A stretch of 29,824 nucleotides of DNA from positions 1-29,824 of the IMG/VR virus record IMGVR_UViG_2609459820_000011; one strand, given 5' to 3'. How positions within the stretch are numbered: position 1 is the stretch's first letter; the number at the start of each line of letters is the position of its first letter. Under the pieces are notes generated by a model, which saw nothing but the letters and a program-made list of their open reading frames with translations, searched no databases and was not told the origin of the DNA. Shown in pieces: positions 3,417 to 18,590 of this stretch. Source of the stretch: a virus. Its lineage: Duplodnaviria; Heunggongvirae; Uroviricota; Caudoviricetes. Both the position numbers and the translations under genes were made by a program.

Positions 3417-4099
3417 TGGTTGCCTCCTTTGCGAAGCTGGGCAGCAAAGTCAACTAACCACTCAGTCATTTCAACCTTCCCTACCAGGTCTGAACCAGGG
3501 TGCATACAGCAATCACTCTGCGCCGCTTTGAAATCCTTATACTCATATTCTTGGGCCACCAGATTTTTTGCAGCTTCTATAGCAGCATCCACCCCCTGCG
3601 CCCGGACTTCAGCCAGGAAAGCATCAGTGGTTGGCGTTTCAGGTATCTGTCTCCTCATCCGTTCTATTGCATGATTGAACCCGAAGTCTTCCGCGAGAGA
3701 TACGTCATCCATATTGTCATTGTCATCCTCAATATCCCGTGATTCTGGAATTGCAGACTTTATTCCCGCATTCTCCGCTGTCAGCGCCGCGCACTTGGCC
3801 TCAAGAGCGGCAACCACTTCCTGATGGTCTTTGTACTTAACGTATGAGCCGGAGATGTCATCACCTTCGGTGTTTAGCCATGCGTCATTGCAATTCACTG
3901 CGTAGGTTCTGATGCTCATGTTGATGCTCTCCCGCCCCTGACAGACGCCAGGCCAGTCAATAAAGTATCCGCAATGCCTACCCTCAGACGTGCGCGCAGG
4001 ATAAATGCCGTTATGACCCGGCAAAATATATGCTACCCATTCATCTTGCGTTGCCTGTTCCGCCGCCTCGCGCAGTGCCTGATAGTCAATCTTGCTCAC
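3413..4099 (-). CDS. Ea22-like (Ead/Ea22 family) protein, paralog 2
   Basis: GTG start preceded by AAGGAGG; N-terminus MSKIDYQALREAAE; first ~40 nt of the two paralogs are roughly 80 percent identical. Confidence 0.6.
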   Translation of the reverse strand: MSKIDYQALREAAEQATQDEWVAYILPGHNGIYPARTSEGRHCGYFIDWPGVCQGRESINMSIRTYAVNCNDAWLNTEGDDISGSYVKYKDHQEVVAALEAKCAALTAENAGIKSAIPESRDIEDDNDNMDDVSLAEDFGFNHAIERMRRQIPETPTTDAFLAEVRAQGVDAAIEAAKNLVAQEYEYKDFKAAQSDCCMHPGSDLVGKVEMTEWLVDFAAQLRKGGNQ

Positions 4100-6984: not shown

Positions 6985-7641
6985 TCAGAAAATATCCCAC
7001 CTGGCATCAACCACAACACCTACTATTTCGCAATCATTGTCCATTTCTATGATTGGATATTGTGGATTAAGGGGCTTTAGAAACGCCTTTCCCATGTCAG
7101 AAATATATTTTTTGAATGTTGCTTCATTGGTAGATTTTTTTCTGGCGATGACGTAACACCCTGAAAAAACTTCTTTATCTGGGTTGACAAGGATCGACAT
7201 TCCTTCAGGAAATGTTATTCCTACGGGCGAAGTCATTGAGTCTCCGTGCACTTCCAGCCAGAACCCCCTCTCACCAGCGTATTTTACAGAATGCCTCCAA
7301 TTATCCTGATCATACATGTTGTAGTCATCACCAGAAGTTGCGAATAATCCTGCCTGAACCCAGTTAATTACAGGGTAAGAGTGTGCTGTGTCTCTCTGTG
7401 GGCAGCTCTTAACATTATTTTCCCAATGCTTATCTTTTTCATCTCCGTTCTGAAGCCACTGCGGTGAACACCGCAGTGCAGCTGCAACTTTAAAAAGGGT
7501 GTCACCGTTGAAACTTTTTGTAAGGCCTTGCTCGGCTTTACTTATTGCAACTCTGGTGACCCCAGCTTTTTTAGCCAACGCATCTTGTGTTAACCCAGCT
7601 TTTTGCCGTGCGTTGATGAGACGTTCACCTAAAGACTTCAT
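6985..7641 (-). CDS. cI: Prophage repressor, cI-like (N-terminal HTH plus C-terminal S24 LexA-like peptidase domain)
   Basis: HTH LTQDALAKKAGVTRVAISKAEQG; VHGDSM serine motif and a downstream lysine (ATFKKY); GAGGAG RBS before MKSLGERL; flanked by operator repeats. Confidence 0.85.
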   Translation of the reverse strand: MKSLGERLINARQKAGLTQDALAKKAGVTRVAISKAEQGLTKSFNGDTLFKVAAALRCSPQWLQNGDEKDKHWENNVKSCPQRDTAHSYPVINWVQAGLFATSGDDYNMYDQDNWRHSVKYAGERGFWLEVHGDSMTSPVGITFPEGMSILVNPDKEVFSGCYVIARKKSTNEATFKKYISDMGKAFLKPLNPQYPIIEMDNDCEIVGVVVDARWDIF

Positions 7642-7663
7642 TTTTCTTCTCCTCTCATGGCTG

Positions 7664-7736
7664 TTGATACTAAAGTAACAGAATTTCTTGATACTTTGGG
7701 TTCCTGTGGTTAACATCGTTGGATAACAAAGTATCT
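7664..7736. promoter_or_regulatory. Right operator/promoter cluster (pRM/pR region) with three operator sites
   Basis: GATACTAAAGTAAC (7666-7679), GATACTTTGGGTTC (7690-7703), GATAACAAAGTATC (7722-7735); candidate pR -35 TTGATA (7688-7693) and -10 TAACAT (7711-7716) with a 17-nt spacer. Confidence 0.45.
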
Positions 7737-7752
7737 GGCGTGAGACTAAAGA

Positions 7753-7980
7753 ATGACCCTTTATGAAATATTAAAAATTCAATTTAAAACCAATGCCGCT
7801 ATTGGTCGCAGGTTCCCAAAGAAAGGAAGGCCTCGTGGCAGTCAAGGTGTTGGAAAGTGGAAAACGCGAGGTGTTCCGGAGGATGTTGCCATTCTTTGTC
7901 ATCTGGATCCGAGCATTCCATATACACACCCAAGTCTAGCGAATACAGAAGATGACAAGCCCACAGGAGACCAACAATGA
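7753..7980 (+). CDS. ORF in the cro position, 75 aa, basic, no recognisable HTH; product uncertain
   Basis: First rightward ORF after OR; weak RBS; no Cro-like motif seen by eye. Confidence 0.3.
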   Translation: MTLYEILKIQFKTNAAIGRRFPKKGRPRGSQGVGKWKTRGVPEDVAILCHLDPSIPYTHPSLANTEDDKPTGDQQ

Positions 7981-8684
7981 ACACCGCAATTTTTAACGGC
8001 AAAGCATCCATGACCAGCGTTGAGATCGCAGAGTTGGTGGGAAGCCGACCAGATAGTGTTAAGAGAACTATTGAAACACTGGCTAAAAAGGGAATCATCC
8101 AATTTCCACAGACTGTGGAAATTGAGAATAAACAATCACTTGGGCCTCGCCGATTTTCTAGCGCGTATGTATTCGAAGGTGAACGAGGTAAGCGCGACAG
8201 CATCATTGTCGTCGCACAGCTCTGTCCTGAATTCACAGCTTGCCTGGTAGATCGCTGGCGCGAACTGGAAGAACAGATCCGTAAGCCAATGAGCGAAATC
8301 GAAATGGTTGCCGCGATGGCTCTTGAAGCCGTTCGCCAACAGAAACGGATCACTCAGGTGGAAGAAAAAGTCAGCCACGTTGCTGAAACAGTCGAGCAAA
8401 TTAAAAAGGGCACTATTCGTGAGGGCTATGCCGGATATCGCCAACTGAAAGCAAAAACCGGTTTGTCAGATGATAAATGCCGCAATCTGGTGAACGCCTA
8501 TCAAATTCCTACAGACACACATGAGTTCATGACGCCGGACGGATTGTTGTCACGTCGCGCAATTGTTGCTGTGGAACCGTTTATGGCTGCTTTTTATCGG
8601 GTTATGGAGGAAGCAGAACCGCGAGGGACTCGCTGGTATCACCCGAAAATGGGGTTATTTCAGGTTATTGGTTGGCAGCGATGA
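7977..8684 (+). CDS. Rha-family phage regulatory protein (antirepressor-like), paralog 1
   Basis: N-terminal SMTSVEIAELVGSRPDSVKRTIETL resembles the Phage_pRha domain start; GGAGA RBS. Confidence 0.6.
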   Translation: MNTAIFNGKASMTSVEIAELVGSRPDSVKRTIETLAKKGIIQFPQTVEIENKQSLGPRRFSSAYVFEGERGKRDSIIVVAQLCPEFTACLVDRWRELEEQIRKPMSEIEMVAAMALEAVRQQKRITQVEEKVSHVAETVEQIKKGTIREGYAGYRQLKAKTGLSDDKCRNLVNAYQIPTDTHEFMTPDGLLSRRAIVAVEPFMAAFYRVMEEAEPRGTRWYHPKMGLFQVIGWQR

Positions 8685-8712
8685 AAAAAAGCCGGGAGTA
8701 ACCCGGCTCACT
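8685..8712 (-). terminator. Hairpin with an A7 run on the plus strand, which reads as an intrinsic terminator for a leftward transcript
   Basis: AAAAAAA then AGCCGGG agtaa CCCGGCT directly after the Rha stop; on the minus strand the stem is followed by T7. Confidence 0.4.
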
Positions 8713-8908
8713 CAACATCAATAACGGGGAGCTGTTTCGCATAAAACGGCTCCGAAACATCCAAGAACAGTTCTAAAGATATCAGCAGCTATATGATCAT
8801 TTCAAGACCAAATATTGATTCTGCAATTCCGGGACGTTACACTGCTCAGGCACCTTATAAAGCGGGTGCCGGGCGTGGAAACCCGAAATTCAATATAGAG
8901 CACAACCG

Positions 8909-8932
8909 CGCTCATGCGGTTTTTTCGTGTCA
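8909..8932 (+). terminator. Candidate intrinsic terminator inside the long ORF upstream of the second Rha gene
   Basis: ACCGCG ctca TGCGGT stem followed by TTTTTCG. Confidence 0.35.
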
Positions 8933-9095
8933 TGAGCATCGTTACGCCCAAATTATGGTGGGGCGTGCAGGGCCAACTTCGGTTGGGCCGGGTTCTATGT
9001 TGACCGGTATTTCCACCCCTGTACGTCTCACCACCTATATGGTCGTGGAAAGCCTTGGTGGTGAGTTCATTGAATTCAACATAGGGGCTGTCACC

Positions 9096-9647
9096 ATGAC
9101 TACTCTCCCAACCCAATCTCACCCTGAAATCACGATTATCAATGGTCGCGTTGTCACCACATCTCTTGCAGTAGCTAATTACTTTACTAAACGGCATGAG
9201 CGGGTTTTAGATAGAATTAGAAACCTCGAATGTTCCGCTGAATTTACTGAACACAATTTTGTGTTAAGTGAATACACCGACGCATCAGGCCGCAAACTAC
9301 CTTGCTATCAAATCACCCGCGATGGCTTCGCGTTCCTTGCCATGGGCTTCACTGGTAAACGTGCTGCCCGGTTCAAAGAGGCATACATCAACGCCTTTAA
9401 CCTGATGGAGAAGAGTTTATCAGGTGCCGATGCGTCTGATATGTCAGCTGTCGCACGAAACGCCAGAGGCGTATACCTGCATTTGCGTGAAATCCATCAA
9501 ATCTGGACAAGCCAGCTTTATCCAATGCTTAAGGCCGTTGAATCTCCGCTGGCTAGCAAACTGTACGACCGTGTTGGTGATGCTGTTTTTGGCGCTGCAC
9601 TTGTTGATTCCAGGCTGAATGGTTCTGACAAGGAGGTTCGCCCATGA
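9096..9647 (+). CDS. Rha-family phage regulatory protein, paralog 2 (start taken at MTTLPT; the ORF is open back to 8793)
   Basis: Rha-like domain ITIINGRVVTTSLAVANYFTKRHERVLDRIRNL...CYQITRDGFAFLAMGFTGKRAARFKEAYINAF begins right after the chosen start; the upstream 100 codons are Gly/Pro/Ala-rich and contain hairpins and a terminator. Confidence 0.65.
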   Translation: MTTLPTQSHPEITIINGRVVTTSLAVANYFTKRHERVLDRIRNLECSAEFTEHNFVLSEYTDASGRKLPCYQITRDGFAFLAMGFTGKRAARFKEAYINAFNLMEKSLSGADASDMSAVARNARGVYLHLREIHQIWTSQLYPMLKAVESPLASKLYDRVGDAVFGAALVDSRLNGSDKEVRP

Positions 9648-9838
9648 TTAGTTACGAAATCATCATCTCCACTACGGAATACAGAAACGATGTATCAGTT
9701 CGCACGGATGTATCTGTCTGGCACCGTCGCTATAAATCCAGAAAAACAGCGGAACTGAAAGCGGCAGAGATGTGTGAAACCATCTCAATGAAAGGTAGCC
9801 CGGTTAAATACGTAACTACGGTGGAGGTGCGTCCATGA
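9644..9838 (+). CDS. Hypothetical protein (64 aa)
   Basis: AGGAGG RBS; ATGA start/stop overlap with the upstream gene. Confidence 0.5.
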   Translation: MISYEIIISTTEYRNDVSVRTDVSVWHRRYKSRKTAELKAAEMCETISMKGSPVKYVTTVEVRP

Positions 9839-10059
9839 TCCGCCACATCGTTAATTCCCTGTATCACCGATACAACCGTTGCCCCCGTGTGGGGCAGTGG
9901 TTCGCCACCAGCAACGGTCACGTTCTGCGGGTTTGCCTAGTCAACGCTGAAAGCCAGAAAGTCGTGTGCGAACTACAGGGGCGTAGCTACACCATCAGTT
10001 ACCCTCTGGCGGTATTTCTGTCTGGAAAAATGTTTAAGCGTCTGGGAGGTGTGGCGTGA
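9835..10059 (+). CDS. Hypothetical protein (74 aa)
   Basis: GGAGG RBS; translationally coupled to both neighbours. Confidence 0.5.
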   Translation: MIRHIVNSLYHRYNRCPRVGQWFATSNGHVLRVCLVNAESQKVVCELQGRSYTISYPLAVFLSGKMFKRLGGVA

Positions 10060-17447: not shown

Positions 17448-17523
17448 GGCCCTTTAGCTCAGTGGTGAGAGCGAGCGACTCATAATCGCCAGGTCGCTGG
17501 TTCAAATCCAGCAAGGGCCACCA
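17448..17523 (+). tRNA. ileZ: tRNA-Ile2 (anticodon CAU, ileX/ileZ-like) with encoded CCA
   Basis: Folded by hand: acceptor GGCCCTT/AAGGGCC, D-arm GCTC-AGTGGTGA-GAGC, anticodon loop CTCATAA, T-loop TTCAAAT, 3' CCA; very similar to E. coli ileX from memory. Confidence 0.85.
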
Positions 17524-17623: not shown

Positions 17624-17697
17624 GCGTTGTTAGCTCAGCCGGACAGAGCAATTGCCTTCTAAGCAATCGGTCACTGGTTCGAATCCAGTACAGCGCG
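17624..17697 (+). tRNA. tRNA-Arg (anticodon UCU)
   Basis: Folded by hand: acceptor GCGTTGT/ACAGCGC (one G-U), anticodon stem ATTGC/GCAAT with loop CTTCTAA, T-arm ACTGG-TTCGAAT-CCAGT. Confidence 0.8.
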
Positions 17698-17837
17698 CTA
17701 TATTCATTCTTCCAGATTCCTTCCGGCAGAGCCTTATACTGAAATATACCTGGCTCAGGATATTGTTGAAAATATTATATGTTTGTCAAAAATAAAAGTT
17801 CTGTTAAGTATTGATTGAGTGTTTGTTATACGGTCTA

Positions 17838-18164: not shown

Positions 18165-18556
18165 ATACATATCTGGATTATCACTTGTTACGGTAAAAAG
18201 TGATTGCTTACTGTTTTTGTGAGTGGCATTGCAGCAGCCGGATAATGTCAGTGCTGGCTGACGGTGTGCTGGTGGCGGGTGTGGTGGTTGTTGCTTTCCC
18301 GTTGCTGAAAAAGAAAACGCCAGACTGTTAGCCGGGTATCAGTTAGCGGGAGAAATTTTTAAATACTTCACAATTCAGGCGGTTGACTGTTGTCTGGTTT
18401 GCGGGGAGTTTGTTAAAAGAAACTGGCATGGTGAATCCCCCTGTGCGGAGGGGCAATCAGCGAGTAGGTATATGGGATAATCGCGGATTCAGGTGCTGGT
18501 ACTGAATTCACCGGGAGGCACCCGGCACCATGCAATGGCACATAGCGCCACTCTCC

Positions 18557-18590
18557 AGCCCCTCTCCGGAGGGGCTGTTTATATTGATTT
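18557..18590 (+). terminator. Intrinsic terminator
   Basis: AGCCCCTC tccg GAGGGGCT followed by GTTTATATTGATTTT. Confidence 0.55.

Follow-up and report, generated by a model that had tools for sequence, protein, structure and literature searches.

In the immI region of phage P22, an accessory to immunity, the small RNA sar represses the anti-repressor gene ant; it is a true cis-antisense RNA, encoded on the opposite strand across the ant ribosome-binding site. In phage P1, the record marks the sites a1, b1, a2 and b2 and states that the a2/b2 sites repress the translation of icd and ant, and synthesis of Ant is repressed by the c4 RNA (PMC8546580). In P4, the CI RNA acts on the replication operon by causing its transcription to terminate prematurely (summary in PMC4825925). 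In the Salmonella prophage Gifsy-1, the isrK promoter drives the operon isrK–orf45(STnc1160)–anrP, which is transcribed and left untranslated (Hershko-Shalev et al. 2016, PMC4825925). [quoted passage not shown] According to the published model, IsrK remodels the long mRNA and thereby enables orf45 translation, rather than titrating free c4 (PMC4825925).

Here, we present a related region in a 29,824-nt stretch of phage DNA, called the window throughout, for which an earlier note had proposed a small-RNA locus, possibly antisense or regulatory, between two Rha genes. Positions 8815-9095 very probably (about 0.88) constitute a complete IsrK–c4 cassette of the immI type ahead of an anti-repressor-type gene of the Rha family in an E. 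coli lambdoid prophage. The cassette is a routine instance of an already known system, which is also found in P1 and P7 (c4), P4 (CI RNA), Gifsy-1 (IsrK/STnc1160), N15 and many lambdoid and Stx phages.

The IsrK–c4 cassette and its regulated gene

The proposal of a small-RNA locus is borne out by two Rfam families scoring above their gathering thresholds, by covariation in 18 loci and by a loop-target match that holds allele by allele (Table 1). The isrK family (RF01394) reached 61.6 bits (gathering score 50) over model positions 1-77 of 77, and the C4 family (RF01695) 82.4 bits (gathering score 45) over positions 1-87 of 87 (E = 5.5e-15). A match to the c4-a1b1 family (RF03163) at 8837-8889 stayed below threshold (23.6 versus 46.7 bits), and this segment is covered by the isrK model instead. 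The pair isrK and C4, with a gap of 21-35 nt, was present in 18/18 related loci including P1, P7, Gifsy-1 and N15, and the pair is found in P4 too. A BLAST search recovered the c4 genes annotated in P1 and P7. Of 5426 complete E. coli genomes, 1239 contained a match to positions 8600-9200, and the E. coli lysogen NMBU_W05E18 was 100% identical. The mosaic block common to many phages begins at 8814. None of the five RefSeq E. coli records that we read carries an RNA gene annotation at the locus; instead, the cassette is overlaid by CDSs labeled "ash family protein" or by a "Rha family phage regulatory protein" that is too long.

Table 1 Features of the region between the first Rha gene and the end of the regulated gene (+, plus strand; -, minus strand;., strand not assigned).
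Feature	Positions	Strand	Details
Leftward intrinsic terminator	8684..8709	-	Stem GAGCCGGG/CCCGGCUU, loop UUACU, U7
Hairpin, would-be internal stem-loop of the candidate leftward RNA	8728..8753	.	Plus strand GGAGCUGUUUCG-CAUA-AAACGGCUCC
Conserved block AACATCCAAGAACA, would-be 5′ single-stranded end of the candidate RNA	8756..8769	-	Minus-strand RNA UGUUCUUGGAUGUU
Leftward promoter-like site	8776..8805	-	TTGAAA, 18-nt spacer, TGnTATCTT; consensus match
Open frame ahead of ATG 9096	8793..9095	+	RefSeq N-terminus of 284-aa Rha protein; Pfam Ash match
Predicted IsrK/c4 operon promoter	8815..8843	+	TTGATT, 17-nt spacer, TACACT; ends 7 nt before G8850; read from sequence
IsrK-type sRNA (equivalent to the c4-a1b1 leader)	8850..8926	+	Rfam RF01394
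IsrK hairpin 1	8850-8869	+	
IsrK hairpin 2	8870-8885	+	a1 GUGGAAA (8875-8881) in loop
b1	8890-8901	+	UCAAUAUAGAGC
IsrK intrinsic terminator	8904-8921, U run to 8925	+	Called by scan
c4 antisense RNA	8951..9038	+	Rfam RF01695
b′ loop of c4	8992-9003	+	GUUCUAUGUUGA
a′ internal loop of c4	9010-9016	+	UUUCCAC
a2 target site	9045..9051	+	GUGGAAA; pairs with c4 a′ loop
Leader element GGUGGUGAG	9057..9065	+	Complementary to CUCACCACC (9027-9035), 3′ strand of the c4 closing stem
b2 target site	9076-9086 (element 9076..9087)	+	UCAACAUAGGG; overlaps Shine-Dalgarno AGGGG 9083-9087
Regulated gene, 183-aa Rha-family protein	9096..9647	+	Pfam Phage_pRha, E = 1.8e-30

The predicted operon promoter agrees with the consensus at 8/12 positions and falls under the threshold of the scan. 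A TTGAYN-17/18-TAnAnT pair stands at an equal distance from the IsrK 5′ end at every homologous locus, and in Gifsy-1 the scan calls TTGACA-18-TATATT, ending 7 nt ahead of isrK. The hairpins and both terminators described in the earlier note exist, and most of them find a place in the cassette: GGCACC...GGTGCC is IsrK hairpin 1, the rightward terminator, previously put at 8909-8932, is the IsrK terminator, and the UUCG-looped GGGCCAAC/GTTGGGCC is hairpin 1 of c4 (~8970-8989), which does not lie between the two terminators as had been stated but to the right of the rightward one. In total, the scan found 7 terminator-like sites in 7500-10000, where 2.9 were expected.

Alignment with P1 c4, whose mature ends were taken from the annotation of the P1 record, predicts a mature c4 of 79 nt at 8957-9035. 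The c4 segment folds with -44.5 kcal/mol (z = -5.2; 0/200 shuffles equally stable), and the minimum free energy fold is the family consensus of three helices, in which a long closing stem surrounds two hairpins. A covariance analysis over homologous loci, the kind of check that had been suggested for this region, showed strong covariation of the c4 fold: across 18 loci, 98.8% of the cells in 27 pairs were paired, 11 pairs had double changes, and the score of 0.472 compared with 0.208 in shuffles (reached in 0/500) and ~0.08 in partner-slid controls. Compensatory changes were also found in 4/13 pairs of IsrK.

Both c4 loops have two sets of complementary sites, one in IsrK and one in the leader of the regulated gene. 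Upstream, a′ forms a duplex of 7 bp with a1 (-8.1 kcal/mol) and b′ one of 12 bp with b1 (-15.1 kcal/mol); downstream, a′ pairs with a2 over 7 bp (-8.3 kcal/mol) and b′ with b2 over 11 bp that include Shine-Dalgarno bases (-12.1 kcal/mol). The longest run of complementarity with G-U pairs tolerated was dropped as a measure, because it was too permissive (non-cognate runs of ~6.8 nt), and duplex energies with permutation were used instead. Over the 18 loci, the energy of the cognate c4-leader combination was -23.3 kcal/mol versus -14.4 kcal/mol with permuted partners (0/5000), and the mean for the cognate IsrK-c4 loops was -22.4 versus -14.5 kcal/mol (0/5000), with a value of -23.2 kcal/mol for the window. 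The loops and both target sets (a1/b1 and a2/b2) change jointly from allele to allele; a2, for instance, covaries with a′ through GTGGAAA, TTGGCGT, TTCGCAG, TTGCTAC, GTGAGAA and others. The leader also holds the GGUGGUGAG element, which nearly every locus carries; in N15 and NAR688 it covaries, with GGTGGTAGC paired to GCTACCACC. This element offers another pairing option in the unprocessed transcript and is probably the counterpart of the alternative helices reported for Gifsy-1. In the predicted fold, the leader hairpin alone pairs both the Shine-Dalgarno sequence and the AUG.

The Phage_pRha domain of the regulated gene product begins at residue 21 of its 183 aa, and the protein matches PHROG families labeled "transcriptional regulator" and "anti-repressor", from which, together with its position, we regard it as a putative anti-repressor or regulator. 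Its Shine-Dalgarno sequence and ATG 9096 are kept in every allele irrespective of the upstream sequence, and the order b2, Shine-Dalgarno, ATG is preserved before very different genes throughout the Enterobacterales. The prophage also encodes a repressor of the S24 family, at 6985-7716.

We infer the transcripts, the processing of c4 and the repression at this locus through homology, with P1/P7, P4 and Gifsy-1 as the models. Transcription would start from the operon promoter at about G8850, and the first 77 nt would form IsrK with the decoys a1 and b1, followed by its terminator. Transcripts reading through this terminator would be processed to a stable c4 of ~79 nt, whose 5′ end is expected to arise by RNase P cleavage between U8956 and G8957. 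By binding a2 and b2, c4 would shut out ribosomes and keep the Rha-type protein off in lysogeny. The short IsrK may compete for a′ and b′ in free c4, or for c4 while it is still part of the long transcript, and relieve the block, so that more IsrK would turn the downstream protein on and favor induction. The module would set whether the anti-repressor-type protein gets made and, with it, whether the prophage stays silent, and versions of it are present in Stx-converting phages, Gifsy-1, P1 and P4. The a/b sequences would serve as specificity (heteroimmunity) alleles that can be read from the DNA and predict cross-regulation between prophages.

Alternatively, the c4-like RNA might act mainly on transcription, its pairing with flanking targets leading to premature termination as for the P4 CI RNA with seqA/seqC. 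The P4 immunity region indeed yields the same Rfam pair (C4 at 8507..8420, isrK at 8692..8615), and in P1, Rho-dependent polarity is said to follow translational repression by c4, as Biere, Citron and Schuster reportedly described in 1992. The window and nearly all relatives, however, have b2 placed over the Shine-Dalgarno sequence, the signature of a block of translation initiation, and the scan found no terminator-like site between c4 and ATG 9096. In Gifsy-1, a transcriptional mode was raised by the authors for STnc1160 and the transcriptional fusion went up 8-fold with IsrK in trans, far below the 139-fold translational effect (PMC4825925). We therefore consider a mainly transcriptional action unlikely and prefer the block of translation.

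The open frame upstream of ATG 9096

A stop-free frame runs across the cassette from 8793 into the regulated gene, and this is left unexplained by the simple IsrK–c4 model. The automatic annotation (PGAP) calls a CDS equivalent to 8793-9647 (WP_001551256.1), the translation of the 8793 frame matches PF10554 (Phage_ASH) with 33.7 bits against a cutoff of 26, and PHROGs 821 and 995 span the frame. Such a frame could encode a Rha protein of 284 aa with an "Ash" domain at its N-terminus, to which the hairpins would be incidental. The conservation of the frame speaks for coding: no lambdoid cassette had a stop when the frame was set by the downstream ORF (59/59), and 50/64 had none when the ATG was set by motif; in 12 loci, 13 and 16 distinct stop sites were counted in frames 1 and 2, respectively, versus 0 in frame 0; and the cassettes measure 246, 243, 240 or 237 nt, each divisible by 3.

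The substitutions, in contrast, show no signature of a protein. Variable columns were distributed over the three codon positions as 52/57/52 in the cassette, compared with 73/64/128 in the Rha CDS, where the excess at the third position indicates coding. PF10554 thus fails as a translated and selected protein domain despite the HMM match. The match is confined to the translation of IsrK, c4 and leader, as the downstream proteins alone give no Ash match; and in P4, PF10554 matches an obsolete "cI protein" ORF lying over the Rfam C4 match, while P4 epsilon itself belongs to PF25738 and the immunity factor CI is, as we take it, an RNA. Among the left-block alleles, amino-acid changes are mostly non-synonymous, as read from the alignment, and in mEp460-type phages the coding periodicity upstream of the cassette tracks the frame of the DUF4222 gene, not a frame of the 8793 type. 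The 8793 ORF contains a predicted promoter and an intrinsic terminator, and the frame is closed 27-33 nt from the ATG in P1, P7, P88, Gifsy-1 and NAR688, and closed in most other lineages. Hence, a protein-coding stretch with an Ash domain starting at ATG 8793 is very improbable in our view, and a start of the second Rha protein at 8793, which would have spoken against an RNA locus, is disfavored by the conserved Shine-Dalgarno sequence and ATG at 9096, by the predicted promoter downstream of 8793, by the missing third-position excess and by the closure of the frame ~30 nt from the ATG in non-lambdoid relatives. ATG 8793 lacks a ribosome-binding site, as had been remarked of the long ORF. Once the RNAs are recognized, the regulated gene is seen to start at 9096, and the so-called Ash domain is accounted for.

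The expectation that the long ORF is probably untranslated agrees with the absence of a codon-position signature, but does not account for a frame kept open in the lambdoid lineage, part of which ribosomes may pass, as has been demonstrated with orf45 in Gifsy-1. In the lambdoid sub-lineage of E. coli and Salmonella, the frame is stop-free through leader, c4, IsrK and promoter in at least 24 a/b allele combinations. An AUG inside c4 (8955-8957), the counterpart of the Gifsy-1 orf45 start, is in frame with 9096 and would be split by the predicted RNase P site. A stop-free frame and lengths in multiples of three, without selection on the peptide, suggest that ribosome passage itself is selected. 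If this is true, such passage may serve as a bypass: with transcription coming from a promoter further upstream, ribosomes would melt both the IsrK terminator and the fold of c4. Alternatively, it may yield an N-extended isoform of the protein.

A candidate divergent RNA in the left block

To the left of the cassette, positions 8684-8805 would most likely be a separate, divergent unit transcribed leftward into an sRNA of ~85-89 nt, which we put forward as a hypothesis only. The GC hairpin behind the Rha1 gene was rightly read as a leftward intrinsic terminator: its stem (8689-8709, core GCCGGG/CCCGGC, 8 pairs) is followed by a minus-strand U run, the plus-strand A run at 8684-8690, which overlaps the final base of the Rha1 stop codon (TGA, 8682-8684). 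The scan calls this terminator in the window and in allele B, and the stem is kept, with a variable loop, in alleles A, B and C; in ETEC1738, one loop-closing pair is changed from U-A to C-G. Because the A run is always at the plus-strand 5′ side, the terminator reads on the minus strand. Contrary to the earlier proposal, the two terminators are not convergent; each closes the outer end of one of two units that lie back to back and diverge from adjacent promoter-like sites, whose -35 boxes lie at 8805..8800 (minus) and 8815-8820 (plus).

The leftward promoter-like site is the only minus-strand match of the scan in 7500-10000. In allele B, which is ~70% identical, TTGAAA-18-TATTTT is likewise the only match, and the spacing is kept in allele C. 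A start at ~8768-8772 is predicted, giving an RNA of ~85-89 nt that ends at 8684. Its 5′ end would carry the core ATCCAAGAAC (8759-8768), kept in 3/3 alleles. The GGAGCTG...CGGCTCC hairpin pointed out earlier (8728-8753) folds well on both strands, and the wobble variants conflict on which strand is functional. Alleles B and C have a hairpin of other sequence at this position, and CUUC/GAAG versus CUGC/GCAG represents one compensatory change.

These comparisons draw on a 14-mer scan of IMG/VR, which returned mostly chance matches and recovered alleles A and B, and on a protein search anchored in Rha1, which added allele C. The hairpins were compared by eye, because the MAFFT alignment given to RNAalifold matched up hairpins that are not homologous and the result was uninformative. 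Two other candidates for the left block were discarded. A plus-strand nutR/boxB at 8691-8707 is contradicted by the loop, which varies (AGUAA, UAGUGA, GUGUGA, CAGUGG) while the stem alone is kept, and an antisense RNA to the Rha1 3′ end resembling lambda OOP by the overlap of the predicted RNA with Rha1, which amounts to the stop codon only.

A view to which we grant nearly even odds is that 8684-8814 makes no leftward sRNA at all, and that the hairpin is an orphan or bidirectional terminator, or a 3′ stabilizer of the Rha1 message at a mosaic junction, with the conserved bases being regulatory DNA of the IsrK promoter. The block has a narrow distribution, with only three alleles found, which always directly follow Rha1-type genes, and other phages join a Rha1 or DUF4222 gene to the cassette without it; moreover, single-base variants of allele A keep pairing on the plus strand only. 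The searches for relatives and targets point in the same direction. No Rfam family matched the left block, and the weak minus-strand matches to sroD (24.5 bits), PrrF, SorX and others were sub-threshold and terminator-driven; the 11-mer core of the leftward RNA had 11 matches with ≤2 mismatches in the prophage versus 9.7 expected, and no target was found; the best duplex of its 5′ region with early-operon transcripts (-18.9 kcal/mol) was weaker than the shuffled median of -20.8 kcal/mol; and a text search of the literature found the left-block sequence in no paper. This view is opposed, however, by the run beside the hairpin, which is on the side of a minus-strand terminator in all alleles, whereas the plus-strand 3′ side has no T run. 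Further arguments for the leftward sRNA are the promoter-like site, the sole match in alleles A and B, where the 18-nt spacing is identical and the -10 extended, the internal hairpin kept despite other sequence, and the arrangement of a conserved single-stranded 5′ end, hairpin, A/U-rich linker and terminator, which is the customary layout of an Hfq-type sRNA. That the locus exceeds the known model in both respects, by selected ribosome passage through the RNA genes and by an undescribed divergent sRNA of ~85-89 nt, is a tentative suggestion that we regard as somewhat improbable when the two are taken jointly.

Comparison with P22, P4, P1/P7 and Gifsy-1

The arrangement differs from P22 sar in that the regulator would be on the same strand as its target and pair through short loop sequences; the Rfam scan of the window gave no sar match. 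P4 resembles the window in having C4 and isrK in the same order at its immunity region, with an RNA that matures out of an untranslated leader and finds its pairing sites to either side of itself, and the old protein annotation of that locus is the source of the "Ash" family match. It deviates in the spacing from seqA/isrK to CI (~108 nt versus 24 nt in the window) and, in the part covered here, by a next gene without an SD-overlapping b2 at ~55 nt.

P1 and P7 share the c4 fold and detectable DNA similarity with the window, and an RNA that comes from the leader of the operon that it represses. In these phages as well, the a′ and b′ loops pair with downstream a2/b2, b2 lies over the Shine-Dalgarno sequence, and a second set, a1/b1, is placed upstream; differing a/b alleles give differing specificities, and it is exactly there that P1 and P7 diverge. 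P1 has icd between c4 and ant, with Ant translation depending on icd, whereas c4 of the window directly precedes the regulated gene. Furthermore, a C1 operator lies over the P1 promoter and none was identified here, the upstream segment of P1 fits the c4-a1b1 model and not that of isrK, and P1 has a longer spacer (67 nt versus 24 nt). The regulated proteins also differ, since P1 Ant (Ant1/Ant2), Gifsy-1 AnrP, which has an ORF6N domain, and P4 epsilon are all distinct from the Rha-domain protein found here.

Gifsy-1 has the same succession as the window, consisting of a promoter, a 77-nt IsrK with its terminator, a c4-type RNA 25 nt further on, and the Shine-Dalgarno sequence and ATG of the regulator. 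The AUG within c4 at which orf45 begins is conserved (AAUUAUGGUGG), and the Gifsy-1 a allele TTGGCGT is also found in E. coli cassettes. The Gifsy-1 orf45 terminates at an AUGA where it overlaps anrP (frame 2), whereas the corresponding AUG of the window is in frame with 9096 and the frame is stop-free, so that upstream initiation would extend the N-terminus of the protein instead of coupling the two genes. The Gifsy-1 cassette follows antQ in the late region, and that of the window is located between the cI/cro/Rha1 genes and the replication genes.

An IsrK-c4 cassette between the two Rha genes

The window comes from a lambdoid prophage of E. coli; strain NMBU_W05E18 matches it at 100% identity. 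A gap of 411 nt, the region under study, separates Rha1, the first Rha-like gene, from the second Rha gene, in which the Pfam domain starts 21 residues past the ATG. The Pfam and HTH matches of Rha1 start at about residue 9-12, beside an internal ATG (M12, 8010-8012), and its true start may lie downstream of 7977.

All elements listed for this gap in the earlier note are present in the sequence. The UUCG hairpin, which it placed between the two terminators, lies to the right of the rightward one, and the terminators are not convergent, because they form the outer ends of two units diverging from adjacent promoter-like sites. Its suggestion of a small-RNA locus is supported by two Rfam families above gathering score on the plus strand, isrK and C4, and a sub-threshold c4-a1b1 match overlaps the 5′ half of IsrK. 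The C4 segment folds at -44.5 kcal/mol (z = -5.2).

Features of the region and its surroundings (sites a and b named after the P1 record)
Feature	Position	Strand	Basis or remark
S24/HTH repressor gene	6985-7716	minus	
Small cro-position ORF	7753-7980		
Rha1	7977-8684		weak Phage_pRha match; PHROG anti-repressor family
Leftward terminator	stem 8689-8709 + U7	minus	terminator scan
Three hairpins of the earlier note	8728-8753; 8850-8869; ~8970-8989		
IsrK/c4 promoter	ends 7 nt before G8850	plus	TTGATT-17-TACACT
isrK (RF01394)	8850-8926	plus	Rfam, 61.6 bits (gathering score 50)
a1	8875-8881		loop of IsrK hairpin 2
b1	8890-8901		in IsrK
Rightward terminator	stem 8904-8921 + T run	plus	terminator scan
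C4 antisense RNA (RF01695)	8951-9038	plus	Rfam, 82.4 bits (gathering score 45)
b′	8992-9003		GUUCUAUGUUGA; c4 hairpin loop
a′	9010-9016		UUUCCAC; c4 internal loop
a2	9045-9051		in leader
Leader element	9057-9065		GGUGGUGAG
b2	9076-9086		UCAACAUAGGG; in leader
SD	9083-9087		AGGGG; 8 nt before ATG
ATG, second Rha gene	9096		
Small ORF	9835-10059		3736-3959 in comparison locus L001; RefSeq: frameshifted pseudogene in the identical strain; intact 74-aa ORF in the window
tRNA-Met (CAT)	17448-17523		further along the prophage
tRNA-Arg (TCT)	17624-17698		further along the prophage
STnc100 sRNA match	18397-18586		132 bits; further along the prophage

In BLAST searches, block 8814-9130 behaved as a mosaic module, with 77-96% identity in the Salmonella phages ST64B and F1055, in mEp460, cdtI and many Stx phages, and with matches that extend to c4 as annotated in P1 and P7. 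The isrK and C4 pair recurs, 21-35 nt apart, in 18/18 related loci (among them P1, P7, Gifsy-1, N15, P88, one Klebsiella and one Hafnia phage) and also in P4, over the CI RNA/seqA region. In the family fold, built of 27 pairs, 98.8% of cells are paired across the 18 c4 sequences and 11 pairs are changed on both sides; the covariation score is 0.472 against 0.208 ± 0.016 for shuffles (0/500 as high) and drops to 0.07-0.09 when pairing partners are shifted 1-3 columns. Of the 13 consensus pairs in IsrK, four are compensatory. Every related locus has a -35/-10 pair with a 17-18 nt spacer, at a constant distance from the 5′ end of IsrK, and in Gifsy-1 the promoter scan likewise placed its end 7 nt before isrK. 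The right part of the gap shows all the defining features of the C4 and IsrK families that can be computed.

The c4 loops match two sets of targets: b′ is complementary to b2, which extends into the SD, and to b1, while a′ is complementary to a2 and a1. The a/b sequences are wholly different between loci and always match within a locus, as in mEp460 (CUUUGGUGA with UCACCAAAG), Lys8385Vzw (CAUGUGCGA with UCGCACAUG) and P1 versus P7. Cognate duplexes averaged -23.3 kcal/mol with the leader and -22.4 with IsrK, compared with about -14.4 for permuted partners, and none of 5000 permutations equalled the cognate energy for either. The order b2-SD-ATG is repeated before unrelated genes in 46 further cassettes from a one-genome-per-species set of Enterobacterales. 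Folded alone, the leader pairs both the SD and the ATG. Its element GGUGGUGAG and the 3′ side of the stem that closes c4 (9027-9035) are complementary and covary in N15 and NAR688, giving an alternative pairing in the unprocessed transcript.

Some prophages (L002, L036, L030, L225, L267, L276 and L283 among the comparison loci) carry two or three tandem cassettes. The copies of L002 lie at 1751-1939 and 2407-2595, each followed by its own small Rha-like gene, and L036 has three, 656 nt apart; in these two loci, where alleles were read, they differ between copies.

The long reading frame and the Ash family

RefSeq annotates 8793-9647 as a single 284-aa protein, and the translation of 8793-9095 matches Pfam PF10554 "Ash" (Phage_ASH). 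Several observations argue against Ash as a real domain; the family seems to have been built from the translation of an RNA gene. Variable columns are spread evenly over the codon positions in the cassette (52/57/52, against 73/64/128 in the Rha coding sequence); matches to PF10554 are confined to the IsrK-c4-leader translation, with none in the downstream proteins; the promoter and one terminator lie inside the ORF; and the frame is shut within ~30 nt of the ATG in P1, P7, P88, Gifsy-1, NAR688 and most other lineages. In P4, PF10554 matches an obsolete 137-aa "cI protein" ORF lying over the Rfam C4 match; the immunity factor CI of P4 is an RNA, and P4 epsilon falls in PF25738. A start of the second Rha protein at 8793, doubted in the earlier note, is disfavoured. 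In the window (8793-9095), L002 (1694-2356) and P4 (L319, 8168-8584), the cassette translation occupies the same stretch as PF10554, the PGAP label "ash family protein" and the N-terminal portions of PHROGs 821 and 995.

Within the E. coli/Salmonella lambdoid sub-lineage, however, stop codons are clearly kept out of the frame. Across 12 loci, none falls in frame 0, against 13 and 16 distinct stop sites in the other two frames. When the downstream ORF sets the frame, 59/59 distinct lambdoid cassettes with 24 a/b combinations are open; when a motif sets the ATG, 50/64 are, versus 10/71 in other lineages. All cassette lengths are multiples of three, and the c4-internal AUG is in frame with the gene in 59/59 ORF-classified cassettes (55/64 by motif). 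On the simplest reading, what counts is the passage of ribosomes, not the peptide. The stop-free frame of the window (8850-9095) and of 59-64 related cassettes (L001-L314) lacks a codon-position signature.

In mEp460/SfV/cdtI-type phages, a long annotated CDS (~383 aa; Rha or "peptidase") and a DUF4222 gene overlap in different frames (L007, mEp460, 676-1035; L003, 1326-1505). Upstream of the mEp460-type cassette, coding periodicity tracks the DUF4222 frame, and the long calls are therefore probably wrong.

A candidate leftward RNA in the left block

The left block (8684-8814) occurs only after Rha1-type genes, in three alleles, of which A, that of the window, is ~70% identical to B. All three have a hairpin with an adjacent A run, which reads as a U7-8 terminator on the minus strand; the loop of this hairpin varies, and one closing pair is U-A or C-G depending on the sequence. 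A second hairpin keeps its place with different sequence (CUUC/GAAG in B, CUGC/GCAG in C), and the core ATCCAAGAAC is conserved throughout. A minus-strand site, TTGAAA-18-TGnTAT(C/T)TT, is likewise kept in all three and was the sole promoter-like match in the scan of A and B. From this putative promoter, back to back with that of IsrK, the block would yield a leftward RNA of ~85-89 nt with a conserved single-stranded 5′ end, a hairpin, an A/U-rich linker and the terminator. Single-base wobble variants conflict on the functional strand, no Rfam family matches the block, target searches returned no target, and a literature search found the sequence in no paper. The odds that the candidate RNA is real are roughly even.

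Proposed regulation and comparison with known systems

The right part is a self-contained cassette of promoter, decoy/activator RNA (a1, b1, terminator), antisense RNA, a2/b2 over the SD, and gene. In P1, Ant synthesis is repressed by c4 (PMC8546580; the P1 record notes agree). In Gifsy-1, the operon is transcribed from the isrK promoter into a long RNA that is left untranslated (280 vs 4 Miller units); supplying IsrK in trans increases anrP translation 139-fold, the read-through transcript is processed to the ~80-nt STnc1160, and anrP expression requires that orf45, whose start codon is the AUG inside c4, be translated (PMC4825925). Lysogens express both IsrK and STnc1160 at high levels. A mature c4 of 8957-9035 is predicted here by alignment to the mature form annotated in P1; its 5′ cut, by RNase P, would lie within the AUG codon 8955-8957, which is in frame with ATG 9096. 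The layout and the homologue experiments lead us to propose that c4 holds the Rha-type protein off, that IsrK would lift this block by competing for a′ and b′, and that the a/b sequences may determine specificity. The Rha protein is a putative anti-repressor by position and PHROG labels.

The right part is an ordinary member of a known, experimentally studied system. P1 differs in having icd, absent here, and another type of regulated protein. Gifsy-1 occupies another genomic position and has an overlapping upstream AUG (AUGA), whereas here, as across the lambdoid set, the upstream AUG is in frame; in P4 the level of control likely differs. Secondary to this are the apparent RNA origin of the "Ash" family, the conservation of the open frame and the possible leftward sRNA.
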